Made by a program: the position numbers and the translations under genes. From NCBI GenBank assembly GCA_004296805.1, contig SCVR01000027.1, positions 1 to 39,864 on the forward strand: DNA of 39,864 nt, given 5' to 3'. The notes under the pieces were generated by a model that saw nothing but the letters and a program-made list of their open reading frames with translations, was not told where the DNA came from and made no database searches. Positions 1,705 through 33,235 of the stretch are shown piece after piece; the first letter of the stretch is position 1; every line of letters starts with the position of its first letter. The DNA is from Dehalococcoidia bacterium (lineage in GTDB: Bacteria > Chloroflexota > Dehalococcoidia > UBA2979).

Positions 1705-3906
1705 TTGACTTTGAAGAAAATTTTTGCACCGCTGACCGTGGTAGCGCTGGTGGCCGTGATGGCCGTCTCGCTGCTCGGCCAGCAGCGGCGGGCTGAAGCT
1801 GGCGCCATTACGGCCGTCAACTTCCAGGCCCCGGTTCAGGCCACGGGCCTGACCGAGACGTGGACGGTTTCGTTCACGACCGCTGTGACGGTTCCGGCAA
1901 CTACCGGCACCATCACGATTGACTTCCCGCAGAACTTCACGACGACCAACGTCACCGCGGCGAACATCACCCTCTCGTGGGGTGGTACGCCGACGGTCGT
2001 TTCGACGACCAACGGCCGACTGGTCATCACCAACGGCGCCACCGCCAGTGGTGCTGCTGCGGTGTCGGTGACGGTGGCGAATGTCACCAACCCGACGACC
2101 AACACCGCCCTCACGGGCGCTGCTGCTCCGACGGCTACGGCGGGCTTCTCGGTGACGACCTCGGTCGACACCGTGGACTTCGACGCGACGCCGCCGCAGA
2201 TCTGGAACACGGCCGCGACCAAGAGCCCGACCACTTCGGTCCCGGCTGACGGTGCGAGCACGGTTCTGGTCACGTTCACCCCGAGCTCGACGTCTCTGAA
2301 CGCCGGTACGGGTGTCAACGTCATCACGGCCACGACCGACATCGGCGCGTTCTCGAGCACGCCGACCGGCACGCTGGCTGCAGCGTGGACGGCGATCACG
2401 ACCCCGGTGACGACGGCGACCGGTTCGTTGACGGCCGGCACTGCCGCCGGCAACACGGGTGTCTTCACGGTGAAGGCCCCGAGCACGGCTGGCACGGCGA
2501 CGGTTGTTCTGCGCGCGACCCCGGCTAGCGGCGGCGCCGCAGTCGTGATCGGCACCACGCAGATCACGTTCACCACGGCAACGGCGCTTCCGGGCGCTGC
2601 GGCTTCGGTGACGGTTGTCCCGGCTGCTGCGTCGATTGGTAACACCACGGCGCAGAACACGGTGATCACGGCGTTGGACGCCACCGGTACCCAGGTGCTG
2701 AACGGCACCGTGGTCACGGTGACGACCAGCAACGGTACGTTCACCACGTGCCCGGGTGGCACGACGGGTAGCGGCGTCTGCACGACGTCGATCCAGGCAA
2801 ACGGTGCCGTCACTGTCGGCATCACCGGCTCTGGTGTGAGCGGGACGCAGACGATCACGGCGACGGTTGGCAGCGTTACGGGCACGGGCACGGTCACGTT
2901 GACCGGTACCACGGCTGGTTCGGTGTCGGTCGCAGTCCGTGCGGCTAACCCGACTTCTGGTGCTGCGAGCACCACTTCCGGCGCGACCACGCCGGCCCGT
3001 TGTGGCGCGTATGTTGCGGTGACTTGTTACCAGAACATCGCTTCCGCGACGGTGAAGGACGCGGCTGGCAACAACGCCGCTGGCATTGTTGTGACGTGGA
3101 CTGTGGCCCCGGCGGACGGCATTGTGTCGTTCGTCACGCCGCAGACCGACACGGCGATCACGTCCTCGGTCTCGAGCGCAGTCTCGACGATCCTTGGCCA
3201 GGCCCGCGCTGGTATCAAGGTTGCGACCACCGGCGTTGCCGGCACGGTCTACACGATCACGGCGACGGCACCGACGTCCACTGGCACGACCAATGGCACG
3301 GTGACGATCACCCTTGGTGACACGTTCTCTTCGTCCGTTGCTGCGTCGACGATGACGATCACCGCTCCGGACATGGCTGTGGCGAGCGCGGGCACGATCA
3401 CGGTCGACGTGTTGGGTGCTGCGGGCAAGCCAGTTGGCGACGGCACGTCCGTCCAGTTGGTCACGAGCGCTGGCGCCGTGGCGAACGTTGCCAACGGTCT
3501 GCCGACGGGCCCGAACCCGGCCTTCACGGTCAACGGCAAGGCGACGTTCACGTACGTCTCACCGTCGACCGCGGACACAATCAACGCCACGGCGTTGATC
3601 GGTAGCTCAGCGAAGTCGGCGACCTTCAAGGTCGGCGCTGGCTCCGTGACCCCGCCGCCTGCAGGCACGGGCTTCTCAGGTGGGACGATCGCTCCGGCTG
3701 GTGTGTCGATTGTGTCCTTCACGGGCACGACGGCTCAGCTGACGACGGCTGGTACGACCGCGAAGGTCGTGTCGGTCACGGCGACCGTTGGTGGCAAGAT
3801 GATCACGTTCGTGATCGGCGCGCCGGACTTCGTTAACGCGGAGTTCAACGCGGCGTTCCCGACGGGCCTGAACGGCACGTTGGTCATCGTCAAGACCGGC
3901 GCCTAG
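1705..3906 (+). CDS. Large secreted Thr/Ala/Val/Gly-rich surface protein with Ig-like (Big_1/invasin-type) repeats and a shared C-terminal module. S-layer-like or adhesin-like.
   Basis: TTG at 1705 sits 5 nt after AGGAGG (1694-1699). Signal peptide MTLKKIFAPLTVVALVAVMAVSLLGQQRRAEA. About four Ig-like repeats, e.g. VITALDATGTQVLNGTVVTVTTSNGTF and ATVKDAAGNNAAGIVVTWTV. Paired cysteines are present. The C-terminal 80 aa (3664-3903) is homologous to the C-termini of the 5908 and 9377 genes. Confidence 0.85.
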   Translation: MTLKKIFAPLTVVALVAVMAVSLLGQQRRAEAGAITAVNFQAPVQATGLTETWTVSFTTAVTVPATTGTITIDFPQNFTTTNVTAANITLSWGGTPTVVSTTNGRLVITNGATASGAAAVSVTVANVTNPTTNTALTGAAAPTATAGFSVTTSVDTVDFDATPPQIWNTAATKSPTTSVPADGASTVLVTFTPSSTSLNAGTGVNVITATTDIGAFSSTPTGTLAAAWTAITTPVTTATGSLTAGTAAGNTGVFTVKAPSTAGTATVVLRATPASGGAAVVIGTTQITFTTATALPGAAASVTVVPAAASIGNTTAQNTVITALDATGTQVLNGTVVTVTTSNGTFTTCPGGTTGSGVCTTSIQANGAVTVGITGSGVSGTQTITATVGSVTGTGTVTLTGTTAGSVSVAVRAANPTSGAASTTSGATTPARCGAYVAVTCYQNIASATVKDAAGNNAAGIVVTWTVAPADGIVSFVTPQTDTAITSSVSSAVSTILGQARAGIKVATTGVAGTVYTITATAPTSTGTTNGTVTITLGDTFSSSVAASTMTITAPDMAVASAGTITVDVLGAAGKPVGDGTSVQLVTSAGAVANVANGLPTGPNPAFTVNGKATFTYVSPSTADTINATALIGSSAKSATFKVGAGSVTPPPAGTGFSGGTIAPAGVSIVSFTGTTAQLTTAGTTAKVVSVTATVGGKMITFVIGAPDFVNAEFNAAFPTGLNGTLVIVKTGA

Positions 3907-4036: not shown

Positions 4037-4543
4037 ATGATTTCGACTCGAAAGCTGGCTGGCATCGGTGCTGCATTCGCGGCGGCCGTTGTCCTGTTCA
4101 GCGCGTTTGCTGCCTCGGCTTCTGCTCAGACCCCGCCGTACACGGCGTACGGTGTGGGCCAGACGGCCGGCGCCAAGATCGCGGCGAACATTGCGGGCAA
4201 GGCCTGCGGTGGCGACGCGACCGTGGATGCACAGGGCAACTGGAAGATCACCATTGGCACCGACGCTGCCTGCGCCCCGAAGGAAGGCGACACTGTCTCC
4301 TTCTCGATCAACGGCGCAGCGGCGGCCCAGACGGTCAAGTGGACCGCTGGTGGCGCTCCGGCTGACGCGGCTAAGGGCATCGCCCTGACCGCGGGCGCTG
4401 CGGCCCCGGCTCCGGCCCCGGCGAAGACCGGCGACGCCGGCCTGCTGGGTTCGACCGGCACCTCGATGGCGCTGGTGCTGATGATGGGCATCGCTGCGGC
4501 CGCTCTGGTCGCTGGTGCCCGCACGGCGACCCGCGAGCGCTAG
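4037..4543 (+). CDS. Small secreted two-Cys-domain protein with an LPXTG-like (PAKTG) cell-wall sorting signal. Putative sortase substrate, paralog 1.
   Basis: AAGGAG SD before the ATG. Signal peptide ends ...ASASAQ. Domain YTAYGVG...CGG...NWKITIG...CAPKEGDTVSFSING...GGAP. The C-terminus is PAKTG-DAGLLGSTGTS, a hydrophobic stretch MALVLMMGIAAAALVAGA, and a basic tail RTATRER. Confidence 0.85.
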   Translation: MISTRKLAGIGAAFAAAVVLFSAFAASASAQTPPYTAYGVGQTAGAKIAANIAGKACGGDATVDAQGNWKITIGTDAACAPKEGDTVSFSINGAAAAQTVKWTAGGAPADAAKGIALTAGAAAPAPAPAKTGDAGLLGSTGTSMALVLMMGIAAAALVAGARTATRER

Positions 4544-4685: not shown

Positions 4686-5183
4686 ATGACGACTCGTAAG
4701 TTCATGGGCCTCGGCATCGCCATCGCGGCTGCTGTTGTGCTCTTCAGCGCGTTCGCCGCGTCGGCGTCTGCGCAGACCCCGCCGTACACCGCGTACGGCA
4801 TTGGCCAGAAGGCCGGCGCGAAGATCACCGCCAACATCGCAGGCAAGTCCTGCGGCGCTGGCGCCACGGCTGACGCGCAGGGCAACTGGAAGATCACGAT
4901 CGCGACGACCGACGCTTGTGCCCCGAAGGAAGGCGACACTGTCTCCTTCGCGATTGACGGCGCAGCGGCGGCCCAGACGGTCAAGTGGACCGCTGGTGGC
5001 GCTCCGGCTGACGCGGCCAAGGGCATCGCCCTGACCGCCGGTGCTGGCGCTCCGGCTCCCGCCAAGACGGGTGACGCGGGCCTTCTGGGCTCGACCGGCA
5101 CCTCGATGGCACTGGTCCTGATGATGGGCATCGCTGCAGCGGCTCTGGTCGCTGGTGCCCGCACGGCGACGCGCGAGCGTTAG
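4686..5183 (+). CDS. Small secreted two-Cys-domain protein with a PAKTG sorting signal. Putative sortase substrate, paralog 2.
   Basis: Same architecture as the 4037 gene. GAGGGGGGA SD. The 3' half is nearly identical in nucleotide sequence to paralog 1. Confidence 0.85.
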   Translation: MTTRKFMGLGIAIAAAVVLFSAFAASASAQTPPYTAYGIGQKAGAKITANIAGKSCGAGATADAQGNWKITIATTDACAPKEGDTVSFAIDGAAAAQTVKWTAGGAPADAAKGIALTAGAGAPAPAKTGDAGLLGSTGTSMALVLMMGIAAAALVAGARTATRER

Positions 5184-5186
5184 TCC

Positions 5187-5852
5187 GTGTACGGGATGAG
5201 GTCCAACGTGGTCGCACGGCTCTCTCGTGGAGCGGTCGCGTTGGCGCTGGGCCTCTGCCTGATCCTTGGATCGATGGGGACGGGTCCTTCCGCCTTGGCG
5301 GAGGGGCCCGTCTCTGTTTCTTCGGGTGCGGTGTTTTACGGGTATGTGCTGGCAGACGGGCAGGGTGGGCTTGCCGAGCGCGTGCGCGCGCTGAGCGTGT
5401 CCGGAGCGGTCTGCGGCACGGCGGAGGTGATCCGCCTGAGCGACGAGGCGGGGTACTACGCCGTGTCGGTCGCATCGTCCGCGCAGAAGCGCGGCTGTCC
5501 CTCGGCGGGTGGCCTGGTGCAGTTCGCGTTGCTGGCGGGCCGTGTGGACGATGGTGTCTGGGCAGGCGAGGTAGCCACATTGACGGATGGTGGCGCTCCC
5601 GTGGCGCTGAACCTGCAGCCGGCGGCCTACGTGACCGGACACTGGCTGGGTCCGTCCGGAGACATCACGCGCGACTTCTGGCTGCGCTGGGCGGGGCCGT
5701 CTGTCCCGTTGCGGGACGCGCTGGTGTCGTTGCCGTTGCCTGTCAGCGAGGTCTATTACCTCGATGCCGCGGCGGGTCAATTCCTGCTGGCGACGCCGTC
5801 TACGGATGCGACGCTCGCGTCCGGCGATCTCGTCCTCGTACGCTTCCGCTAG
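5187..5852 (+). CDS. Secreted hypothetical protein. Divergent member of the two-Cys module family with a divergent C-terminal module.
   Basis: Signal peptide ...AVALALGLCLILGSMGTGPSALAEG. Motifs FYGYV...CGTAEV...GYYAVSV...GCPSAGGLVQFALLAG...GGAP parallel the YTAYG module. The start is uncertain: GTG 5187, ATG 5196, or GTG 5208 with GAGG 6 nt upstream. Confidence 0.65.
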   Translation: MYGMRSNVVARLSRGAVALALGLCLILGSMGTGPSALAEGPVSVSSGAVFYGYVLADGQGGLAERVRALSVSGAVCGTAEVIRLSDEAGYYAVSVASSAQKRGCPSAGGLVQFALLAGRVDDGVWAGEVATLTDGGAPVALNLQPAAYVTGHWLGPSGDITRDFWLRWAGPSVPLRDALVSLPLPVSEVYYLDAAAGQFLLATPSTDATLASGDLVLVRFR

Positions 5853-5907
5853 GCTGGACAGCGTCCAGACTCGGACCCGGTGCTCGCGATCTTCAGTGGG
5901 GACATCA

Positions 5908-7062
5908 ATGACCAGGCTTTCCACGAGATTCAGTCTGCCCAGCGTCCTTTCGGCATTTGCCGTGGCGGTGGCGTTGCTGGCGGGCTCATCGCCTCGTGTC
6001 GCGTCTGCCGCGCTCGTGGTGCCACCGGTGTTCACGGCGCCGATCCAGGCGACCGGGCTGACCGAGACGTGGACGATCAACGGGTGGCAGGGATCCGTGC
6101 CGAACCACATCACCTCCGTGACGGTGACCTTCCCCGCCGGGTTCGTGATTCCCAACAACCCCACCGTCACTGTGACGGCGAACGCGCTGGCGTGTACGGT
6201 CCGAACTGCGGCACGGACGGATCAGTCGGTGGTGATCGCGGTGACTGGCACCTGCGAGACCAGCGCGGCCGTGGGGCGTCAGTCGATCACGATCGCTGGA
6301 GTCACGAATCCGACGGCTGCGGGCACGATCGCTGCGGCGGGCTTCACGCTGGCCACGAATGTGGACTCGGAGACCGCGGCGAGCGCGGGCGTGACGATCT
6401 GGGGGATCACGACCAATCCGACGGTTTGCACCACCTCGGCCGGTGTCAGTACCGCGGAAGTCACGTTCGTTTCGACCGGTGGTGGCGTGGCCGCCAACAC
6501 AGGGTCAGGTCGGGCTGCTGCGTTGCAGGTGACCCTGAGCGCGGGCTCGTTCAGGTGGACCCCGTTCTTCACGGGTACGCTGGGTACGATCGACACCGCA
6601 GGGGTGACTGCAACAACTGCGGCGGCCTCGGTGGCGGCCGGCGTATCTTCCGGCTCGTCTCTGGCCGTGGGCCTGGGCCTCTCCGGCGCGACGGTGGTGA
6701 CAGTGACGCTGCGGGTGACGCCGGCGACCGGCGGCACCTCGGTCTTGCTCGGGTCGCGGGAGGTGACGTTCACCGACAGCACCTGTGTCGCACCGGCGAC
6801 CACACCGAGGCCGCCGTCCGGCACGGCGGGCACGTTCTCCGGCGGCACGATCGCTGCCTCGGGTGTCTCGATCGTGTCGTTCAGCGGGACGACGGCGCAG
6901 CTGGACACGGCGGGCGCGGCGGCGAAGGTGACGTCCGTTTCGGCGACGGCGAGCGGACGGATGCTGACGTTCGTGGTGGGTGCGCCATCGTTCGTGAACG
7001 CTGATTTCAACGCGGCATTCCCGATCGGCCTGAGCAGCACGCTGGTGATCGTCAAGACATAG
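5908..7062 (+). CDS. Secreted Thr-rich surface protein sharing both the N-terminal motif and the C-terminal module of the 1705 gene
   Basis: An internal ATG at 5908 (TGGGGA SD) gives the signal peptide MTRLSTRFSLPSVLSAFAVAVALLAGSSPRVASA. The track ORF starts at 5764 and would overlap the previous gene. FTAPIQATGLTETWT matches FQAPVQATGLTETWT of the 1705 gene. The C-terminal module is at 6829-7059. Confidence 0.8.
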   Translation: MTRLSTRFSLPSVLSAFAVAVALLAGSSPRVASAALVVPPVFTAPIQATGLTETWTINGWQGSVPNHITSVTVTFPAGFVIPNNPTVTVTANALACTVRTAARTDQSVVIAVTGTCETSAAVGRQSITIAGVTNPTAAGTIAAAGFTLATNVDSETAASAGVTIWGITTNPTVCTTSAGVSTAEVTFVSTGGGVAANTGSGRAAALQVTLSAGSFRWTPFFTGTLGTIDTAGVTATTAAASVAAGVSSGSSLAVGLGLSGATVVTVTLRVTPATGGTSVLLGSREVTFTDSTCVAPATTPRPPSGTAGTFSGGTIAASGVSIVSFSGTTAQLDTAGAAAKVTSVSATASGRMLTFVVGAPSFVNADFNAAFPIGLSSTLVIVKT

Positions 7063-7259: not shown

Positions 7260-8096
7260 ATGCTGACCTCGCGTGGATTGGTGCGCGGACTGACGCGCGC
7301 TGTCTCGGGTGCCATCGAGTGGCTGCGGCGCGATGGGCGGCGCAGCCTTCGGTGGTGGCCGCTGCTCGCTCTGTCGGTCCTGTTGGCGGCGACGCTGACT
7401 TCCTGCAGCAACAAGGACAAGAATGCGGTGCGGTTGCTGACGCCAACGCCGACCTCGGCGGGTGCGAGCGCGACGCCGACGCCGTCTCATCCGGACGAGG
7501 CTGCGCCCCCGCTGCCGACGCCGAAGGTGACACCTCCACCGGACGCGAACAAGTTGTTCCGGAACCTGGACGACTTCCTGAAGGAGTACGACTACCCGAA
7601 GGACGCGAACTTCGCGCGGATCAAGATCCCGGCGATCAGCGTCGACGCGCGTGTGGCGTCTCGGACGGTGGGGCGTGACGGGATCATGGCGGACCCGGCG
7701 GGGCCGGCCGACGTGATCTGGTATGACCTGAGCGGTTGGCCGGGCCTCGGCGGGAAGCCGGGCGAGGGCGGCAACGCGATCTTCTCCGGGCACGTGGACT
7801 ACGACTACCTGATCCCGTACGCGGGTGTGCGCTATCGCGGCCAGGGCGTGTTCTCGAAGATCTCGGCGCTGTCGACGGGCGACCTGATCGAGGTGGAGTA
7901 CGGCGGCAAGGTGCTGCGGTACCAGGTGGTGTCGCGTCGGCAGTACAACGCTGGAAGCGGCGTGGACTGGACGACGGTGTGGTCGGGCAAGGTGCCGAAG
8001 GACACGATCACGCTCTACACGTGTGGTGGCGCCTTCGACACGATCACGAAGGAGTACTCGGACCGGGTGGTCGTGAGGGCCGAACGCGTCCCGTAG
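7260..8096 (+). CDS. Sortase-family transpeptidase, class-F-like, with an N-terminal anchor and a Pro/Thr-rich linker
   Basis: IKIPAISVDARV motif. Catalytic His in NAIFSGHVDY (codon 7791-7793), Cys in ITLYTCGGAFD (codon 8022-8024), Arg in VVVRAE. The GHVD and TCGGxFD forms resemble class F sortases. The N-terminus is RRDGRRSLRWWPLLALSVLLAATLTSC, a lipobox-like L-T-S-C after a hydrophobic stretch. Confidence 0.85.
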   Translation: MLTSRGLVRGLTRAVSGAIEWLRRDGRRSLRWWPLLALSVLLAATLTSCSNKDKNAVRLLTPTPTSAGASATPTPSHPDEAAPPLPTPKVTPPPDANKLFRNLDDFLKEYDYPKDANFARIKIPAISVDARVASRTVGRDGIMADPAGPADVIWYDLSGWPGLGGKPGEGGNAIFSGHVDYDYLIPYAGVRYRGQGVFSKISALSTGDLIEVEYGGKVLRYQVVSRRQYNAGSGVDWTTVWSGKVPKDTITLYTCGGAFDTITKEYSDRVVVRAERVP

Positions 8097-8207: not shown

Positions 8208-9305
8208 ATGACCGCACGCGTCCTCGTCGCCATGTCGGGTGGAGTCGACTCCGCCGTCGCCGCCGCCCTGCTCCACGAGCAGGGATACGACGTCGTGGGC
8301 GTCACGCTGCGCCTCTACACCGAGGCCGACGACACCGCCCTCCGCTCCGGCCGCACCTGCTGCGGCATCGAGGACGTCGGAGATGCGCGGGCCGCCGCAC
8401 AGGCGATCGGCATCCCGCACTACGTCCTCAACATGGAGCGCGAGTTCGAGCGCGACGTGGTCGAGCCGTTCGTCGACGCCTACCGGAATGGCCGCACCCC
8501 GAACCCCTGCCTCAACTGCAACCAGTACGTGAAGTTCGACACCCTGCTCAACCGCGCCCTCGCGATGGGCGTCGACTACCTCGCCACCGGCCACTACGCG
8601 AGGGCTGAGCGGGACGGCGATGTCGTCCGCCTGCATCGCGCCGTCGACGACGAGAAGGACCAGTCGTACGTCCTCTACACCCTCAACCAGGACGCGCTGC
8701 GTCGCACGCTCTTCCCGCTCGGCGGGCTGACGAAGGCGGAGACGCGCGCCCACGCGCGGCGGTTCGGGCTTCCGCTCGCCGAGAAGCCGGACAGCGTGGA
8801 CATCTGCTTCGTCCCCGGCGGTGACTACCGCGAGTTCCTCGCCGTGCGCGGCGTTACCGGCACCCCCGGCGACATCGAGCGGCCCGACGGCACCCGCGCC
8901 GGCACGCACCTCGGCATCCCGCTCTACACGGTGGGCCAGCGGCGAGGCGTCCCCGTCACACCGAGCCCCGGTGCAGACGGCGCACCCGCCCGCCAGTTCG
9001 TCACCGCCATCGATGTCGCACGCAACACCATCACCGTGGGCGACGAGCGCGATCTCCTCGCCTCGCAGATCGAGGCGAGCGCGCCTCACTGGACCACCAC
9101 CGCGCCCCAGCCCGGCGACGCTGTCACCGCACGGATCCGCTACCACGCCACCGACCTCCCCGCGCATGTCATCGAGGCCAGCGACGGCCGCCTCACGCTC
9201 GCCCTCGACGTCCCCGCCCGCGCCATCGCTCCCGGCCAGGCCGTTGTCCTCTACCGCGGCACCGAGGTCCTCGGCGGTGCGACCATCGAGGGGTCGTGGC
9301 GGTAG
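8208..9305 (+). CDS. mnmA: tRNA 2-thiouridine(34) synthase MnmA
   Basis: PP-loop VLVAMSGGVDSAVAA, plus CCGIEDVGDARAAA and RTPNPCLNCNQYVKF. The start is set at the internal ATG 8208 (MTARVLVAMSGG) rather than the track start at 8136. Confidence 0.92.
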   Translation: MTARVLVAMSGGVDSAVAAALLHEQGYDVVGVTLRLYTEADDTALRSGRTCCGIEDVGDARAAAQAIGIPHYVLNMEREFERDVVEPFVDAYRNGRTPNPCLNCNQYVKFDTLLNRALAMGVDYLATGHYARAERDGDVVRLHRAVDDEKDQSYVLYTLNQDALRRTLFPLGGLTKAETRAHARRFGLPLAEKPDSVDICFVPGGDYREFLAVRGVTGTPGDIERPDGTRAGTHLGIPLYTVGQRRGVPVTPSPGADGAPARQFVTAIDVARNTITVGDERDLLASQIEASAPHWTTTAPQPGDAVTARIRYHATDLPAHVIEASDGRLTLALDVPARAIAPGQAVVLYRGTEVLGGATIEGSWR

Positions 9306-9376: not shown

Positions 9377-10012
9377 ATGACCGCGATCCGACGACTGGCT
9401 GGCCTCGGGCTGGCGCTGGTGGTGTGCGCGGGGCTCCTGACCGCGACAGCGGCTCCGGCCGCGGCGCAGCAGGCCGCGCCGTATACGGCCTACGGCGTGG
9501 GGCTGAGGGCGGGCGCGATGATCGGCGCGAACATCGGCGGCCGGTCGTGCGGGCCGGCGGTCGCCGTGACCGCGACGGGCACGTGGCTCATGTACATCGC
9601 GGTCAGTTCGCCCTGCTCACCGCGCGCCGGTGACGTCGTGTCGTTCACCGTGGACGGCCAGGCGGCGGAGCAGACGGTCACCTGGTCCGAAGGTGGCGCG
9701 CCTGCGAACGCGGCGGCGGGGATTGCCCTCACCGTGGCGGCGCCGAAGCCCACCGTGACGACCGCCGCAGCGCCGGCCGCCGGCGGCTTCACGGGCTCGA
9801 TCTCGCCCTCGGGAGTCTCGCTCGCCTCGTTCACCGGCACCACGGCGCAACTCGACACCGCGGGCGCGGCCGTGAAGGCCACCTCGATCTCAGCGACCCT
9901 GGGCGGGAAGGTGCTGACGTTCGTCGTCGGCGCGCCGAGCTTCGTGAACACCGAGTTCAACACCGCGTTCGCAAGCGGGCTGCAGGGCACGCTGGTGATT
10001 GTGAAGACCTAG
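9377..10012 (+). CDS. Secreted fusion protein: two-Cys YTAYG module plus the shared C-terminal module
   Basis: AAGGAG SD precedes ATG 9377. Signal peptide MTAIRRLAGLGLALVVCAGLLTATAAPAAA. The N-terminal half is homologous to the 4037/4686 proteins. The C-terminal 76 aa (9782-10009) is homologous to the C-termini of the 1705/5908 proteins. No sorting signal is present. Confidence 0.85.
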   Translation: MTAIRRLAGLGLALVVCAGLLTATAAPAAAQQAAPYTAYGVGLRAGAMIGANIGGRSCGPAVAVTATGTWLMYIAVSSPCSPRAGDVVSFTVDGQAAEQTVTWSEGGAPANAAAGIALTVAAPKPTVTTAAAPAAGGFTGSISPSGVSLASFTGTTAQLDTAGAAVKATSISATLGGKVLTFVVGAPSFVNTEFNTAFASGLQGTLVIVKT

Positions 10013-10029: not shown

Positions 10030-10620
10030 CTAACTCCGCGCGAACGCGAGGAGCGGCGCGATCTCCCCAGCGTCCGCGCTCGTGAGCGCGGCGCGGTACG
10101 CCGCGCGCAGTCCGTCCGTGTCGACCTCAAGGCCGGCGCCCCAGGAGAACGGCCGCCCGCCGAGCGCCTCGACGAGGTAGTCGGCGGCGATCCTCGAGTG
10201 ACGGCCGTTGCCGTTGGGGAACGGGTGGACCTGCACCAGCCGGTGGTGGAAGCGCACGGCGATCTCGTCGCGCGGATACGTGCCGTACTCCACCCACGCG
10301 CGCACGTCCTCCACGAGGACGCGCACCGCCTCGGTGATCCGGTGAAAGGCGATACCAAGGTTCGTGTCAGTGGTGCGATAGCGGCCCGCCCAGCGCCAGA
10401 CATCCCCGAACATCGCCCGGTGCAACCCTCGCAGGTACGCGTCGTCGAGCAGCTGCGCGACGGTGGGCGGGCGTCGCAGCAACGCAGTCGCAATGTTGCG
10501 TTGCTCGGCTTCGAAGAGGTCGCCGCGGCTCGCGATGTGCGTGGGGATGAGGCCGCGCCGGTCGTCCTCGGCGAGTGCGGTGTGGCCGTCGCCCGCCGGG
10601 ATGAGCGGATCGAGGGTCAT
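10030..10620 (-). CDS. Fic/DOC-family protein (mobile mystery protein B type)
   Basis: Fic motif HPFPNGNGRHSR, with Asn where the canonical HxFx(D/E)GNGRxxR motif has D/E. About 196 aa. It begins 3 nt after the stop of the upstream HTH gene. Confidence 0.85.
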   Translation of the reverse strand: MTLDPLIPAGDGHTALAEDDRRGLIPTHIASRGDLFEAEQRNIATALLRRPPTVAQLLDDAYLRGLHRAMFGDVWRWAGRYRTTDTNLGIAFHRITEAVRVLVEDVRAWVEYGTYPRDEIAVRFHHRLVQVHPFPNGNGRHSRIAADYLVEALGGRPFSWGAGLEVDTDGLRAAYRAALTSADAGEIAPLLAFARS

Positions 10621-10623
10621 CGA

Positions 10624-11175
10624 TCACTCCCCGGCAGGCGGCGACCCGTACGCAGGCTCGTCCGACGGTCCGCCCTCGGGCTCTGCCCACAGCCCTCGAC
10701 GGTCCACGAAGCGGGCCGCCAGGTCATCGAGCAGGTTGGTGGTGCCGAGGTAGTCCACCGACTGGTCCTCGAGGCGGCTGTGGTGTGCCACCCGCCCGAG
10801 GTGCCGTGCCGCCTTCTGGCGGGCCTGCGTGCGGACGGCGTCATCCAGGGTGACCCGCGGCACCAGCGCGTAGACGACGTCGCAGTCGAGCGCGCGGGCG
10901 ACGCGACGCAGGGTCTCCAGCTTGATGGTGTCCCGCTGCTCGCTCTGTTCGAGGTCCGAGATCACCTGCTGGCTTACGCCCATGCGATGCGCCAGTTCGG
11001 TGCTCGACATGCCCAGGGCATCGCGGATGGCACGGATCCACCCGAGGTGCGGGCGCGGTTCCGCCGCCAGCCCTCGGAATGACCGAAGCCGCTCATCGAG
11101 CCGGAGTCGTGCCTGAGCGTGACCGCTGACGTTGTTCATGTTGCCGATTCTACTGGCTATAGGATGTGATGTCAA
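10624..11175 (-). CDS. XRE-family helix-turn-helix protein (mobile mystery protein A type)
   Basis: HTH IRDALGMSSTELAHRMGVSQQVISDLEQSEQRDTIKLETLRRVARAL. An alternative start at 11139 gives MNNVSG.... It is coupled to the Fic gene. Confidence 0.8.
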   Translation of the reverse strand: MTSHPIASRIGNMNNVSGHAQARLRLDERLRSFRGLAAEPRPHLGWIRAIRDALGMSSTELAHRMGVSQQVISDLEQSEQRDTIKLETLRRVARALDCDVVYALVPRVTLDDAVRTQARQKAARHLGRVAHHSRLEDQSVDYLGTTNLLDDLAARFVDRRGLWAEPEGGPSDEPAYGSPPAGE

Positions 11176-12009: not shown

Positions 12010-12095
12010 GGAGAGGTGGCCGAGCGGTTGAAGGCGCTCGTCTCGAAAACGAGTAAACGCAAGTTTCGCGGGTTCGAATCCCGCCCTCTCCGCCA
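12010..12095 (+). tRNA. tRNA-Ser (anticodon CGA), class II with a long variable arm and encoded CCA
   Basis: Hand fold: acceptor GGAGAGG/CCTCTCC, D-stem GCC/GGC, anticodon stem CTCGT/ACGAG with loop CTCGAAA, variable arm AAAC-gcaa-GTTT, T-arm GCGGG-TTCGAAT-CCCGC, discriminator G, CCA. Confidence 0.9.
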
Positions 12096-12187
12096 TCGAG
12101 TCTGTCGGCACACTCCCTGACGGACCCGCATCGCAGACCGGCCTCACCGCCACGCGAAGCAATCCAATCGATGGCGTCCCACCTCGC

Positions 12188-12277
12188 GGAGAGGTGCTGG
12201 AGTGGTTGAACAGGCTCGCCTGGAAAGCGTGTAATGGGGTAACTCATTCGCGGGTTCGAATCCCGCCCTCTCCGCCA
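12188..12277 (+). tRNA. tRNA-Ser (anticodon GGA), class II, encoded CCA
   Basis: The acceptor and T-arm are the same as in the first tRNA. D-stem CTG/CAG. Anticodon stem CTCGC/GCGTG has one U-U mismatch; loop CTGGAAA. Long variable arm. Confidence 0.85.
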
Positions 12278-16616: not shown

Positions 16617-17813
16617 GTGACTGCTCAGCCGATCCGAACAGTAGGGGTGGGCGGCTTCGAGGTCACGCCGGAGGCTCGGGCCGCGGTGATGGCGGTGCTG
16701 GACTCCGGCCGGCTGTCGTACGGGCCGGTGACGAAGGAGTTCGAGGGTACGTTCGCGCGCGACCACAACCTGAGGTTCGCCGCGTTCTGCAACAGCGGCA
16801 CGAGCGCGCTGCATGTGGCGATGCAGGCGCTGAAGATCCTCGGTGAGTGGCAGGACGGCGACCAGGTGATCGTGCCGGCCGTGACGTTTGTGGCGACCTC
16901 GAACATCGTGCTGCACAACAACCTGACCCCGGTCTTCGTGGACATCGAGTGGGGGCGGTACGGTCTGAACCCCGCGCTCCTCGAGGCGGCGATCACGCCT
17001 CGGACGCGGGCGATCATCCCGGTGCACCTGTTCGGGCAGGCGTGCGACATGGGGCCGATCATGGAGATCGCGCGGCGCCATGACCTGCGCGTCCTGGAAG
17101 ATTCGTGCGAGGCGATGTACGCGAAGTACGAAGGGAAGTCGGTCGGGTCGTTCGGTGACGCCTCGGCGTTCTCGACGTACGCGGCACACGTGCTGGTGAC
17201 GGGCGTGGGCGGCCTCGCGTGCTCGAACCGACCCGAGGTGGCGCAGTTGATGCGCAGCCTGTTGAACCACGGACGGGACGGCATCTACATCGCGATCGAC
17301 GACGACGAGGTGGAGGGCGAGGCGCTGAAGGAAGTGATGTCGCGCCGCTTCGTCTTCGAGCACGTAGGCCACAGTTTCCGGGCGACGGAGATGGAGGCAG
17401 CCCTGGGCGTGGTGCAGTTGAAGGACGCAGCCTCGCTGGTGGCGAAGCGCCGGGCGATCGCGGCTCGGCTGACGGCAGGCCTCGCGCCGTACGGGGAGCG
17501 GCTGATCCTGCCGAAGATGCACGCGGGCTCGGACCACTCGTTCATGATGTACCCGATCGTGACGGGGCCGGGCGTCGACCGCGACGACCTGACGTTCTAC
17601 CTGGAAGAGCACGGGGTGGAGACGCGGCACATGATGCCGCTGACGAACCAGCCGATCTATGAGCGGATGTGGCCGGGGTTGGAGGCGCGGTTCCCGGTGG
17701 CGCGCGAGATCAACCGGCGCGGGTTCTACATCGGTTCGCACCCGGCGATGTCGCTGGATGACGCGGACTACGTTGCCGAGGTGTTCGGCGACTACTTCTC
17801 GCAGCAGAAATAG
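16617..17813 (+). CDS. DegT/DnrJ/EryC1/StrS-family PLP/PMP enzyme with His in place of the Schiff-base Lys. ColD-like sugar 3-dehydratase candidate.
   Basis: CNSGTSALHVAMQAL, GDQVIVPAVTFVATSN, IIPVHLFGQACDM, LEDSCEAM. Segment FSTYAAHVLVTGVGG aligns with FSFHAIKNITxxEGG of aminotransferases, with His (codon 17187-17189) at the Lys position. The C-terminus RGFYIGSHP...DADYVAEVF resembles the ColD tail. Confidence 0.75.
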   Translation: MTAQPIRTVGVGGFEVTPEARAAVMAVLDSGRLSYGPVTKEFEGTFARDHNLRFAAFCNSGTSALHVAMQALKILGEWQDGDQVIVPAVTFVATSNIVLHNNLTPVFVDIEWGRYGLNPALLEAAITPRTRAIIPVHLFGQACDMGPIMEIARRHDLRVLEDSCEAMYAKYEGKSVGSFGDASAFSTYAAHVLVTGVGGLACSNRPEVAQLMRSLLNHGRDGIYIAIDDDEVEGEALKEVMSRRFVFEHVGHSFRATEMEAALGVVQLKDAASLVAKRRAIAARLTAGLAPYGERLILPKMHAGSDHSFMMYPIVTGPGVDRDDLTFYLEEHGVETRHMMPLTNQPIYERMWPGLEARFPVAREINRRGFYIGSHPAMSLDDADYVAEVFGDYFSQQK

Positions 17814-17817
17814 CGAC

Positions 17818-18804
17818 ATGCGGATCCTCGCGACCGGAGTGACGGGGCAGGCGGGGTACTACCTCGCGCGCCACGCCGCGTCGCAGGGGCACGAGGTGCA
17901 CGGTCTGGCGCGGCCCGGGTCGGTCGCGACGGCGGAGGCGATGCTGGGCACGTCGACGCTGGGGGCTTCCGGTGTGCGCATCCACGCGGGCGACGTGCGA
18001 GACCAAGGCGTCCTGGATGCGGTCGTGGCGGCGGTGCGGCCGGAGCGGGTGTTCCACTTCGCGGCCGGCGTATCGGTGGCGGCGTCGTGGGAGGACCCGG
18101 TAGGGCACGCCGACGTGAACGCGCTCGGCACGGCGCGGCTGCTTGAGGCGGTGCGGGCGCACGCGCCACAGGCGCGGTTCTTCTACGCATCGTCGTCGGA
18201 GGCGCTGGGGCGTGCGGCCTCGATGACCGAGGTGTTCGACGAGCGATCGCCGCTGCGCCCGGCGACGCCATACGGGGTGTCGAAAGCATTCGGGCACCAC
18301 CTTGTGCGTGCCTACCGGGACCGGTACGGGATGTTTGCGGTGTGCGGCGTGATGTTCAACATCGAGTCCCCGGTGGGAGTGCGTGCGTCCGTGGTGCAGC
18401 ATGTGGCGGCGTCGATGGTGCGGATCGCTGAGGGGCGACAGGCGGTGTCGATAGAGATCGGCAACCTGGACGCGCAGAGGGACTGGGGCTTCGCGGGGGA
18501 TTACGTGGAAGCGGCGGCGCTGATGCTGGAGCAGCCGGAGCCGGATGATCTGGTAATCGCGACGGGGGTTGTGCACACGGTGCGAGACCTCGTCGCGTCG
18601 GCGGCCTCGGCGGCGGGAATCGCCGTGCCGGCGCTACAGGTGTCGGAGGACCGGTTGCGGCCGGGCGAGGTGAACCGGATCGCGGCCGACCCGTCGCTGA
18701 TCCGGGCACGGCTCGGGTGGTCGGCGCGGACAGACCTGGACGGGCTGCTGCGGATCATCGTCAGCGATCCGGCGTTCCGGGCGCGCGCGTTGGCGGGCGG
18801 ATGA
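17818..18804 (+). CDS. Gmd/Rmd-family NAD(P)-dependent SDR (GDP-4-keto-6-deoxyhexose reductase-like)
   Basis: An internal ATG at 17818 gives MRILATGVTGQAGYYLARH (GxxGxxG). Also YASSSEALG, TPYGVSK (YxxxK), MFNIESPVG, GNLDAQRDWGFAGDYVEA, DLVIATGVVHTVRDL. It is a paralog of the gmd gene but diverged. It starts 5 nt after the previous stop. Confidence 0.75.
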   Translation: MRILATGVTGQAGYYLARHAASQGHEVHGLARPGSVATAEAMLGTSTLGASGVRIHAGDVRDQGVLDAVVAAVRPERVFHFAAGVSVAASWEDPVGHADVNALGTARLLEAVRAHAPQARFFYASSSEALGRAASMTEVFDERSPLRPATPYGVSKAFGHHLVRAYRDRYGMFAVCGVMFNIESPVGVRASVVQHVAASMVRIAEGRQAVSIEIGNLDAQRDWGFAGDYVEAAALMLEQPEPDDLVIATGVVHTVRDLVASAASAAGIAVPALQVSEDRLRPGEVNRIAADPSLIRARLGWSARTDLDGLLRIIVSDPAFRARALAGG

Positions 18805-18805
18805 A

Positions 18806-20002
18806 GTGTCGCTGACACTGGACCGGCCGTGGGCATTGGCGGTCGCCGTCGGGTTCGGCCTGGTCGCGATCTATCCGTGGTTGATCTACCCCGCTGTGCT
18901 CCGGGCGGTCACGTGGCGAGTGCGCGGCGTCCAGCATCGCGACCCCGAGGAGTGGCCCTCGATCACGGTGCTGGTGGCTGCACGGAACGAGGAAGCGCAC
19001 ATCGTGGCGCGGGTGGAGAACATTCTCGCGAGGGACTATCCGCGAGATCGTCTCTCGATCGTGTGCGTGTCAGACGGCTCAGATGATGGTACGGACCAGT
19101 TGTTCCGCGAGGCCGCCCGGCCGTTGGGCGATCGGGCGACGCTGGTCCGGCAGCCGGTGCAGTTGGGGAAGTCCGCTGCGTTGCAGGTCGGGTGGCGCGA
19201 GGTGCAGAGCGACGTGGTGGTGCTTACGGACGCCAACGCGCACTTCGAGCCAGGCACCCTGCGGGCGCTCGCGCGGCCGTTCTCCGATCCGCGTGTGGGG
19301 GCGGTGGCCGGTGTGAAGCGGATCCGGGTGCCGGAGGATGCGTCCACTCACGAGGCCGGGGAGGGCGCGTACTGGCACTTCGAGTCTCGGCTACGTGCCG
19401 ACGAGAGCCGGCTGGGTCTGTGCCAGAGCGCGGACGGCGCCTGCTGGGCGGTGAGGCGGACGTTGTGGGACGGCAGCGGGCCTCGCGGCCGGTTTGCCGA
19501 TGATCTGTGGGGTGCGCTGGAGGTGCAGCGACAGGGATACCGGGTGGAGGCCACGCTGGATGCGGTAGCGAGTGAGGACGCCGCGGCCTCGCTGAGCGCG
19601 GAGGTGCAGCGGAAGCGGCGGACGCAGTACGGGCTACTGCTGCTGTTGCCGCACCTTGGCTGGATGCTGATGCCATCTCGATGGCGTTCGCTGTGGTGCT
19701 TCGTGTCGCACAAGGTGCTGCGCCTGGCGACGCCGTGGGCGCTAGTGGGCCACGTCGTGGCGCTGGCAGTGGCTGATGGGGTGTGGAGTGTCATCGCAGT
19801 TGCCGAGGCGCTGGTGGCTGCCGGTCTGATGGCTATCGCAGCGGGTGGTACTGCGACCTCGCGACGGATGCGTGTCCTTACGGATGGTGGGTACTTCTTG
19901 ATCGCGTTGATCGGGCCTGCGATCGCATGTCTGGATGCGGCGTGGGCGCTGGTCAGGCGAGACCCTGGCGAGTCCGCCTGGCAGCCGGGGGCGCATCGCT
20001 AG
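18806..20002 (+). CDS. GT2-family glycosyltransferase with flanking TM helices (synthase-like topology)
   Basis: PSITVLVAARNEE, VSDGSDDGT, VVLTDANAHFEPG (DxD-like), QRKRRTQYG (QxxRW-like). There are N-terminal and several C-terminal hydrophobic segments. It starts 2 nt after the previous stop. Confidence 0.85.
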   Translation: MSLTLDRPWALAVAVGFGLVAIYPWLIYPAVLRAVTWRVRGVQHRDPEEWPSITVLVAARNEEAHIVARVENILARDYPRDRLSIVCVSDGSDDGTDQLFREAARPLGDRATLVRQPVQLGKSAALQVGWREVQSDVVVLTDANAHFEPGTLRALARPFSDPRVGAVAGVKRIRVPEDASTHEAGEGAYWHFESRLRADESRLGLCQSADGACWAVRRTLWDGSGPRGRFADDLWGALEVQRQGYRVEATLDAVASEDAAASLSAEVQRKRRTQYGLLLLLPHLGWMLMPSRWRSLWCFVSHKVLRLATPWALVGHVVALAVADGVWSVIAVAEALVAAGLMAIAAGGTATSRRMRVLTDGGYFLIALIGPAIACLDAAWALVRRDPGESAWQPGAHR

Positions 20003-31573: not shown

Positions 31574-33235
31574 CTAGAAGTGGAGCACCGGCCGAGGCGG
31601 CACTGGCGGCATCGGTGCAGCGGCGGGCAGGTTAGGGGTCGGCGGCTGCGTGACCTCGATCAGCGCGGGCTTGTTCGAGGCGAGCGCGCGGTCCAGGGCG
31701 GAGCGGAACTCGACCGAATCCTTCGCGCGGTAGCCGGTGACGCCGAAGAGTTCGGCGACCTTCTGGAAGTCGGGGTTGTTGAGGTCAGTGCCCATGCCGT
31801 GGCCCTGATAGCGCTGCTCCTGGATCCGGCGGACGTTGCCGAACATGTTGTCGTTGAAGACGACGGCAACGAGCGGGATATTCTGCTGCGCGTGCGTGGA
31901 GAGCTCCTGCACGTTGTACATGAAGCCGCCGTCCCCGCTGATGGAGACGACCTTCCGGTCAGGATTGCCGACCTGCACGCCCAGCGCTGTCGCGTAGCCA
32001 TAGCCGAGGGTGCCCTGATAGCCCGAGGTGAAGATGCCGCGCGGTTGGTAGACCGGGAATGCCCCGCCCTGCGCGACGTATCCGACCTGCGTGCTCTCGG
32101 AGACGAGGATGCCATCCTCAGGCATGACCTCGCGCATGACGTTGATCATGTCGCGCTGCCACGGTGTGGTGTCGTAGGCCTTGCGCTGCGCGTCCTTCAC
32201 GCCCCGCAGTTCCGCCTCGCGGCTGGTGCGGGTGCGGTTGTGCTTCGGGACGCGCCGGACGAGTTCGGTGGCGGTGTGCTTCGCGTCTCCCAGGAGGGCG
32301 AGGTCAGCGGACCGGTTGCGGCCGATCTCTTCCGGGTCGATGTCCGCCTGGATCACGGTGCCGGTGACCTCGACGCCGCCCGGGCCGGGGATGCCAGCGA
32401 GGAAGCGCGTGCCGATCACGAGGACGGCGTCCGCCTTCGCGAGCAGTTGCATCTGTGCGACCCGACCGACCTGCGCGTGGTAGTCGTGGTCTGAGACCAC
32501 GCCTCGACCGTTCGCGGTCATGATGACAGGCGCCTCGAGGATGCGTGAGAGTTCGCGCACCTCCTCCCACGCCTCTGCGGAGAGGACGCCACCGCCGGCG
32601 CAGATCACGGGGTTCTCGGACTTGCCGAGGATCTGCGCGGCCTGCTCGAGGCGGTCGGGGTCGGCCTGGTGCAGTTGCGAGCGGTCGAACGACTCGGGCT
32701 CAAGGAGGGTGACGTCCGCGACGGTGCCAAGGATGTCTGGCGGCACCTCGATGGAGACGGGGCGAGGGCGGCCGGTCATCAGTTCGCGCACGGCGCGGCG
32801 CACCATGCCGGGGATCTCCTCGGGCCGCATGGCACCCTCGGCGGATTTGGTGAGGTGACGCAGGAGGCCGGGCTGGTCGTTGATCTCGTGGAGTGCGCCG
32901 CGGCCCTTGCCGATGAGGGTGGAGTCGATCTGGCCGGTGACGCAGAGGACGGGAGAAGAGCACGCGTACGCAGTGGAGAGGGCGGCTGTCGCGTTCAGGA
33001 CGCCGGGGCCAGGGACGACGATGAACGTCCCGATCTTGCCAGTGGACCGCGCGAAGCCATCCGCCATGTATGCGGTGGCCTGTTCGTGTCGGGTGTGGAG
33101 CACCTTGAAGTGGTCGCGCTCTTCCCAGAGGCCGTCGAAGAGGAAGTCCAACTGGATCCCGGGGAGCGCGAAGATCGTCTCGACGCCCTCGATCTTGAGT
33201 GACTGAGCGAGGGCCTGTCCGCCGGTCATCTGCAT
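31574..33235 (-). CDS. Thiamine-pyrophosphate-dependent enzyme (acetolactate synthase large subunit / IolD / Xsc-like; subfamily unresolved)
   Basis: The start is set at ATG 33235 (MQMTGGQALAQSL), with GAGGGGAG about 10 nt upstream. Motifs LHTRHEQATAYMADGFAR, VVPGPGVLNA, GDGGFMYNVQEL (TPP-binding GDG...N). Confidence 0.85.
   Translation of the reverse strand: MQMTGGQALAQSLKIEGVETIFALPGIQLDFLFDGLWEERDHFKVLHTRHEQATAYMADGFARSTGKIGTFIVVPGPGVLNATAALSTAYACSSPVLCVTGQIDSTLIGKGRGALHEINDQPGLLRHLTKSAEGAMRPEEIPGMVRRAVRELMTGRPRPVSIEVPPDILGTVADVTLLEPESFDRSQLHQADPDRLEQAAQILGKSENPVICAGGGVLSAEAWEEVRELSRILEAPVIMTANGRGVVSDHDYHAQVGRVAQMQLLAKADAVLVIGTRFLAGIPGPGGVEVTGTVIQADIDPEEIGRNRSADLALLGDAKHTATELVRRVPKHNRTRTSREAELRGVKDAQRKAYDTTPWQRDMINVMREVMPEDGILVSESTQVGYVAQGGAFPVYQPRGIFTSGYQGTLGYGYATALGVQVGNPDRKVVSISGDGGFMYNVQELSTHAQQNIPLVAVVFNDNMFGNVRRIQEQRYQGHGMGTDLNNPDFQKVAELFGVTGYRAKDSVEFRSALDRALASNKPALIEVTQPPTPNLPAAAPMPPVPPRPVLHF

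Follow-up and report, generated by a model that had tools for sequence, protein, structure and literature searches.

A predicted α/β domain shared by exported Chloroflexota proteins as a candidate module for surface retention

Introduction

Among the modules with which exported bacterial proteins are attached to the envelope, S-layer homology (SLH) domains bind a pyruvylated secondary cell-wall polymer, and SPOR domains, which are usually C-terminal, bind peptidoglycan. The 'choice-of-anchor I' family takes its name from its co-occurrence with various anchors. Some Dehalococcoidia possess both peptidoglycan and an S-layer, whereas others have an S-layer only; the way in which Chloroflexota build and decorate their envelope is poorly known, and a phylum-specific anchoring module is not known to have been described. 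Here a segment of about 75–80 residues is described that forms the C-terminus of three secreted proteins, encoded by genes A, B and C in a stretch of 39,864 nucleotides from a Dehalococcoidia bacterium (assembly GCA_004296805.1, contig SCVR01000027.1, positions 1 to 39,864), which is referred to as the window. A reading of the window sequence, the original prediction, had proposed that the segment is a sorting, anchoring or docking module. The analysis presented here defines the segment as a conserved domain with a confidently predicted fold, places it in a family that appears to be large and undescribed, and considers whether the domain may hold exported proteins at the cell surface.

Three secreted proteins with a common C-terminal domain

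The tails of A, B and C align without gaps, from GVS(I/L) to LVIVKT, exactly as the original prediction had it for positions 3664-3903, 6829-7059 and 9782-10009, and both the sequences quoted there and these coordinates are correct. Over the aligned tail, B shares 69% and C shares 60% of its residues with A; a BLASTP alignment of the A and B tails gives 73% identity with an E-value of 6e-32. According to the hidden Markov model (HMM) and the predicted structure, the domain itself starts slightly upstream, with an F(S/T)GG strand (near 3655, 6811 and 9773). At the DNA level, the three copies have diverged at many third positions of codons. Since their synonymous divergence (dS) is 0.8–0.9 and the ratio of nonsynonymous to synonymous changes (dN/dS) is 0.21–0.22, the copies are old paralogues under purifying selection, and the dS values rule out recent duplication, gene conversion or a compositional artefact as the cause of their similarity. 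The claim that a conserved module resides on otherwise different secreted proteins is thus borne out by the identities of 60–73% and the dN/dS ratio of about 0.2.

Each of the three proteins carries an N-terminal hydrophobic segment resembling a signal peptide, beyond which A, B and C contain no further hydrophobic stretch of 19 residues. An LPXTG-type motif with a membrane segment is absent from all three, their tails reading LVIVKT with an additional GA in A, and neither SLH nor any other Pfam domain is matched in them. The hydrophobicity and Pfam checks therefore agree with the earlier observation that the proteins lack an LPXTG, SLH or transmembrane anchor. When the broad family profile A4 was used for a six-frame scan of the window, no significant copy was detected besides these three.

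Relatives of gene A with the same start and the same end are P0014, P0017, P0020 and L011, and L006 holds an orthologue of gene B. The N-terminal regions of A and B are related to each other as well, with 34% identity over about 280 residues (BLASTP E-value 2e-10). This similarity corresponds to a common N-terminal domain without a Pfam match, which contains the sequence F(T/Q)APVQA(T/A)GLTETWT and is encoded at 1705-2200 and 5905-6400 of the forward strand; a related region in L023 is 46% identical to B over about 150 residues.

Predicted fold and absence of described relatives

The single domain is predicted by AlphaFold2 with a mean predicted local distance difference test score (pLDDT) of 93 and a predicted template-modelling score (pTM) of 0.83. 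The model consists of a short strand (residues 6-8), a long strand (16-24), a helix (26-35), a hairpin of two strands (38-45 and 48-53), a second helix (58-67) and a final strand (72-81). The signature G-A-P-x-F-V-N-x-x-F lies where the hairpin meets the second helix, and its Ala, Pro and Asn residues are invariant in 26 diverse members; near-invariant glycines in the same 26 members follow the first long strand and occupy the hairpin turn. In a model of a tandem pair, both copies have pLDDT values above 90, and the pTM is 0.66 despite about 70 poorly predicted flanking residues. All three window copies show the properties of this GAPxFVN domain, i.e., a length of about 75 residues, the motif, the order strand-helix-hairpin-helix-strand and an exported carrier protein, with E-values of 1e-24 to 1e-27 against profile A4. 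These predictions point to an extracellular α/β domain of about 75 residues that folds independently.

The original prediction considered the domain unrelated to known families, and the searches agree with this. No Pfam-A model covers it in 46 proteins, comprising the window genes and their relatives, and no NCBIfam model does so in the 14 proteins that were scanned. A sequence profile search against the Protein Data Bank (PDB) gave no matches at E≤10. The predicted structure was also compared by Foldseek, as had been proposed, and no known domain was matched: the single domain reached at best an E-value of 1.1 and a TM-score of no more than 0.41 against the PDB, short of the threshold of E≤0.001, and an E-value of 0.37 against BFVD, while the tandem pair reached 0.087 with a TM-score of 0.11 against the PDB. 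The weak top matches are unrelated Rossmann-like or ATP-grasp subdomains, none of them significant. Whatever its function, the domain is a candidate for a new Pfam/InterPro family with a predicted fold that has no solved relative.

Family size and taxonomic distribution

When 1.84 billion representative proteins were searched exhaustively with HMMER, 674 clusters were retrieved at E≤1e-3, 255 of them at E≤1e-10, so that the segment is clearly not restricted to this locus, as the original prediction had considered it might be. The family appears to be large and undescribed. A word-indexed search had returned only 8 matches, mostly fragments, which would have indicated a tiny family; this is an artefact of the index, which gave only short proteins in both of its uses. 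Apparent stand-alone homologues of 90–140 residues, encountered in several metagenome-assembled genomes (MAGs), proved on inspection to be the frameshifted ends of longer genes. Such frameshift-split homologues (L001-L006) probably stem from faulty assembly of high-GC DNA and make 'small' members appear more numerous than they are.

The taxonomic distribution was examined with the motif GAPxFVN[ATV][DE]F in one genome per species, for 185,579 species. Twenty-four loci were confirmed, 23 of which belong to Chloroflexota and one to an unclassified "bacterium" MAG. The Chloroflexota loci are mainly from MAGs of Dehalococcoidia, with one from Tepidiformaceae and one from Chloroflexia. Several genomes contain two to four loci, the genes being dispersed. 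Only four database matches are named, each as "hypothetical protein [Chloroflexi bacterium]". So far, judged from this single-motif scan and the named matches, the family is confined to Chloroflexota. Searches of the literature brought up nothing relevant on an anchoring domain of Chloroflexota.

Position, copy number and partner domains

The domain was mapped with a local HMM on 155 proteins, made up of the 150 matches listed by the exhaustive search and five short matches from the word-indexed search. Two adjacent copies are the most common arrangement (115 proteins), followed by a single copy (37), five copies (2) and three copies (1). In 134 of the 155 proteins (86%), no more than 20 residues separate the end of the last copy from the C-terminus. 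In the remaining 21 (14%) the placement is N-terminal or internal; the original prediction had asked whether the segment is always C-terminal and had counted internal positions as evidence against its own reading, and on this point it does not hold. The residues that terminate the domain also vary, including KT, KA, RT, KR, KV and RK. The proteins that bear the domain are always exported and possess signal peptides.

N-terminal placement is observed in close relatives of the window copies. In P0066 and P0103, which keep the LV(I/V)VKT ending, the domain directly follows the signal peptide and is succeeded by a linker and a staphylococcal-type nuclease (SNase), accompanied in P0103 by an Excalibur domain. 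The domain of P0060, another close relative, occupies the same position ahead of a C-terminal region without annotation. It precedes a trypsin-like protease in L009, P0035 and P0129, and in the more distant L020, L021, L024, L027 and L029 it forms the mature N-terminus, followed in L029 by an AMIN-like domain. Examples of C-terminal placement on enzymes are the matrixin-type metalloproteases L026 and L028, and L019, in which phytase-like and 'choice-of-anchor I' domains of Pfam are combined with the shared domain at the C-terminus.

Many of the carriers are very large: 80 of the 155 mapped proteins have at least 1,000 residues, and the longest has 5,146. Their partner domains include cadherin, LRR, Calx-beta, fn3 and SWM repeats and β-propellers. 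A recurrent cassette of these giant proteins consists of repeats, a PRGIWSD β-propeller, a Cadherin-like domain and two copies of the shared domain, each with a conserved Cys pair, which is a feature of the more distant branch. A poly-Gly linker is also part of the common cassette in P0009, P0016, P0021, P0050, P0081 and others (1,000–5,146 residues). The N-terminal parts of the giant proteins vary, with cadherin, fn3, LRR, Calx-beta, subtilisin-like and PEP-utilising-like regions.

Y-module proteins with a sortase signal or the shared domain

Genes A and B lie in a compact cluster on one strand, in the order A, two Y-module genes, the 5187 gene, B and a sortase gene; gene C follows after mnmA (Table 1). 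The Y-module is a domain of about 90 residues with two cysteines, for which no Pfam family match was found. It carries either a sortase-type signal, as in the proteins encoded at 4037 and 4686, or the shared domain, as in gene C, whose Y-module is 48% identical to that of the 4037 protein and in which the shared domain replaces the sortase signal. The architecture of gene C recurs in L009, L012, L014, P0006, P0013 and P0035.

The cluster order, including the mnmA gene that follows the sortase, is kept in the related MAG L011 and partly in L006/L008 (Y-module fragment, p5187, B, sortase and mnmA), L017 and L022, where p5187 denotes the product of the 5187 gene. The sortase gene adjoins domain-bearing genes in L006/L008 and L011 as well, and is located a few kb downstream in L017. 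Most domain-bearing genes have neither a sortase gene nor a Y-module gene nearby (L007, L010, L013, L015 and L016).

A possible role in surface retention

Judged from its architecture, and with roughly even confidence, the domain is taken to be a non-covalent surface-retention or docking module that binds a component of the envelope. It would be exported together with its protein through the Sec pathway, and would then hold this protein non-covalently on the cell surface by binding an envelope component, for instance the S-layer, a polymer of the wall or another surface protein that is itself anchored. At the locus in the window, the domain would act as an alternative to a sortase signal, with the Y-module attached covalently through PAKTG in two genes and held by the domain in the third, and the large structural proteins A and B would make use of the domain as well.

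Several observations argue for this reading. A binding module at the cell surface is suggested because the domain is folded, tolerates different positions and tandem arrangement, occurs only on exported proteins, and is combined with the usual cargo of surface display, i.e., proteases, nucleases, phosphatase-like enzymes, adhesins and structural proteins. Retention on the cell's own envelope is favoured over binding to an external substrate because the domain alternates with a sortase signal on the Y-module and is present on a 'choice-of-anchor I' protein. In where it sits and how many copies are present, the domain is similar to known wall-binding modules, being mostly C-terminal, at times N-terminal, and commonly tandem. 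Plausible targets in the envelope exist, since early-branching Dehalococcoidia possess peptidoglycan as well as an S-layer that bears further protein complexes (PMC10284905). Of the idea of a sorting, anchoring or docking module, the anchoring and docking part is consistent with the C-terminal bias (134 of 155) and with the replacement of the sortase signal on the Y-module, while the analogy with sorting by the type IX secretion system (T9SS) fails.

A number of points weigh against surface retention. The domain has no sequence or fold likeness to any known wall- or S-layer-binding domain, and, in contrast to many glycan binders, members of the close subfamily contain few charged or aromatic residues. 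The five copies of P0010 and P0013 are interspersed with other modules along the chain, which resembles a repeated ligand-binding or structural unit more than an anchor at the terminus, and the C-terminal pair of the giant proteins could equally be a distal adhesive tip. Finally, the restriction to Chloroflexota derives from a scan with a single motif and from the four named matches, most of the metagenome matches carrying no taxonomy.

The leading alternative, which is considered unlikely, is an association module, in which copies pair within a tandem chain or between single-copy chains, and A, B, C and possibly p5187 form a complex or dock on a partner such as the sortase-anchored Y-module proteins. 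The predominance of two adjacent copies and the pTM of the tandem-pair model, obtained in spite of the poorly predicted flanks, would be explained in this way, as would the recurrence of Y-module and domain in one chain and the co-encoding of three or four single-copy proteins with sortase substrates in an order that L011 maintains and that L006/L008, L017 and L022 share in part. On the other hand, most domain genes lie away from sortase and Y-module genes, and a tandem arrangement is just as characteristic of wall-binding modules.

Less probable still is a module for targeting to a substrate or ligand, which in the manner of carbohydrate-binding modules would direct the enzymes and adhesins that carry it to a polymer or surface outside the cell instead of to the cell's own envelope. 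The presence of the domain on hydrolases (matrixin, trypsin-like protease, SNase and phytase-like enzymes), at either terminus, in tandem and in multiple copies, fits such a role. The replacement of the sortase signal on the non-enzymatic Y-module does not, nor does the presence of the domain on structural proteins without a catalytic domain (A, B, L007, L010 and L013), and no known binding-module fold was matched.

Least tenable is a C-terminal sorting signal that is recognised and then removed or transferred by dedicated machinery, e.g., the sortase of the locus, by analogy with T9SS or LPXTG systems: the strong C-terminal bias, the sortase gene adjacent here and in L006/L008 and L011 and a few kb downstream in L017, and the VKTGA end of gene A and its relatives, which faintly resembles PAKTG, speak in its favour, but since N-terminal, internal and tandem placements occur, close relatives included, the domain is not a terminal signal of this type, and with the absence of a membrane segment or charged tail, the variable terminal residues, the lack of a nearby sortase at most loci and the monoderm nature of the Chloroflexota, which have no outer membrane to cross (PMC10284905), this explanation is highly improbable and is largely refuted by the positional data. 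Sortase cleavage at the VKTGA of A, or at a 'PAGTG' that precedes the domain, was also considered and rejected, since B, C and the relatives preserve neither sequence.

A more far-reaching reading can also be envisaged, in which the domain would serve as the docking partner in a surface-assembly system specific to Chloroflexota, with the sortase-anchored Y-module proteins or the S-layer as a scaffold into which the domain-bearing structural proteins, proteases, nucleases and giant adhesins plug non-covalently. This reading is unlikely. If correct, it would provide a counterpart of the cohesin-dockerin or SLH-polymer systems, built on a fold without a solved relative. The family comprises more than 670 clusters, all of which at present carry the annotation hypothetical; proteases, nucleases and adhesin-like proteins as long as about 5,000 residues are among them. 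Should retention or docking be the function of the domain, it would define the displayed surface proteome of widespread and mostly uncultured Chloroflexota, offer a handle for finding the envelope component that is bound, and provide a new tag for surface display.

Neighbouring genes and other features of the window

Table 1. Genes and domain copies at the locus of the shared domain (positions in the window)
Feature	Position	Strand	Description	Evidence
Gene A	1705..3906	+	733 aa, secreted, rich in Thr, Ala, Val and Gly; shared domain at end (LVIVKTGA)	Open reading frame; signal-peptide-like N-terminus; no Pfam or NCBIfam match
Shared domain copy 1	3655..3897	+	Residues 651-731 of A	HMM E 1.6e-26; AlphaFold pLDDT 93
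Y-module protein 1	4037..4543	+	Signal peptide, PYTAYG domain of ~90 aa, sortase-type signal (PAKTGDAG, membrane segment, RTATRER)	
Y-module protein 2	4686..5183	+	Paralogue of the 4037 protein, with the same sortase-type signal	88% identity to the 4037 protein
221-aa secreted protein (p5187)	5187..5852	+	Y-module-like N-terminal half; C-terminal 70 aa (5640-5849) a candidate divergent domain copy	
Gene B	5905..7062	+	385 aa, counted from the ATG after the upstream gene (longest open reading frame starts at 5764), secreted; N-terminal region related to A; shared domain at end	
Shared domain copy 2	6811..7059	+		HMM E 8.9e-27
Sortase	7260..8096	+	TLYTCGG active-site region	Pfam PF04203, E 1.3e-16
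Gene C	9377..10012	+	211 aa (longest open reading frame starts at 9296): signal peptide, Y-module, shared domain	
Shared domain copy 3	9773..10009	+		HMM E 1.9e-24

Judged from sequence, the last 70 residues of p5187 probably represent a degenerate version of the shared domain. Its orthologues keep a remnant of the motif, YVPGAPAFVS in L017 and YVAGAPDFVS in L022, which the window copy has lost. An hhalign comparison of profiles A4 and A5 brings all secondary-structure elements into register with an E-value of 4.7e-4, at a probability of only 32%, and in the six-frame scan the copy in the window is below HMM detection.

The sortase-type signals of the Y-module orthologues read PSETGNAG in L017 and PAGTGNAG in L022. 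Together with those in the window they yield a non-canonical consensus, P-x-x-T-G-[DN]-A-G-[LF]-L, after which come a membrane segment and a tail rich in Arg. The sortase itself comes nearest to class F of NCBIfam, with 75 bits against a cutoff of 166, and classes C, D and E score lower; it may represent a distinct Chloroflexota group that is matched to the PxxTG[DN]AG signal. Nothing relevant on this class of sortase was found in the literature.

Directly downstream of gene C, the reverse strand encodes a Fic-family protein with the motif HPFPNGNGRHSR and an adjacent upstream open reading frame, which could be a Fic partner (10030-10620 and 10624-11175). At a distance of 7–10 kb downstream, a group of genes on the forward strand (16617-20002) encodes a DegT aminotransferase, a GDP-mannose-dehydratase-like protein and a GT2 protein, indicative of sugar-nucleotide modification and glycosyltransferase activity. 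In L001-L004, a domain-bearing gene adjoins epimerase, GHMP-kinase and SIS genes. A link of domain-bearing genes with surface glycans is possible, although these associations may be coincidental. The window further contains two neighbouring tRNA-Ser genes (cga and gga) at 12010-12277 on the forward strand, and a tRNA-Pro(agg) assigned by ARAGORN at 31597-31694 on the same strand, which is unusually long (98 nucleotides), lies amid overlapping open reading frames and may be a false positive.

Comparison with known systems

The C-terminal domains of the T9SS (Por_Secre_tail) resemble the shared domain in their length of about 80 residues and in their position at the very end of a variety of secreted proteins. 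This likeness in logic, which the original prediction had pointed out, does not extend further. The T9SS domains are all-β, obligately C-terminal and cleaved, and belong to an outer-membrane secretion system of the Bacteroidota type, whereas the domain described here occurs at any position in proteins of monoderm Chloroflexota and is modelled as an α/β fold of two helices and five strands. In addition, TIGR04183/Por_Secre_tail gave no match at E≤1 on A, B and C or on the relatives scanned.

With SPOR and RNP-like β-α-β-β-α-β folds, the predicted domain has only the order of elements and the size in common; Foldseek returned no SPOR- or RNP-like match, the best TM-score being about 0.4, and no Pfam SPOR match was obtained at E≤1. 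Dockerin-cohesin pairs and CWB2 or LysM repeats offer a parallel in their modular attachment to a scaffold or wall and in the frequency of tandem repeats. They differ from the shared domain, which has no Ca-binding repeats and for which no candidate cohesin-like partner was identified, and the Pfam scan of the 46 proteins placed none of dockerin PF00404, CWB2, LysM, SH3b, PG_binding, SPOR or GW over the domain.

Sortase signals of the LPXTG type are comparable as an alternative means of retaining the same cargo, as exemplified by the Y-module, but they comprise a short cleaved motif, a membrane segment and a charged tail instead of a folded domain of 75 residues. The closest analogy in logic would be a position-tolerant binding module of the SLH kind. 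The SLH domain of monoderm bacteria is an α-helical bundle, typically present in three copies, in contrast to the predicted α/β fold with typically one or two copies and no PF00395 match. Like the domain of A, B and C, however, SLH domains are small modules that are found on unrelated exported proteins such as S-layer proteins, enzymes and adhesins, at either end and often in tandem, and their hold on the envelope is non-covalent, as may be the case for the domain described here.

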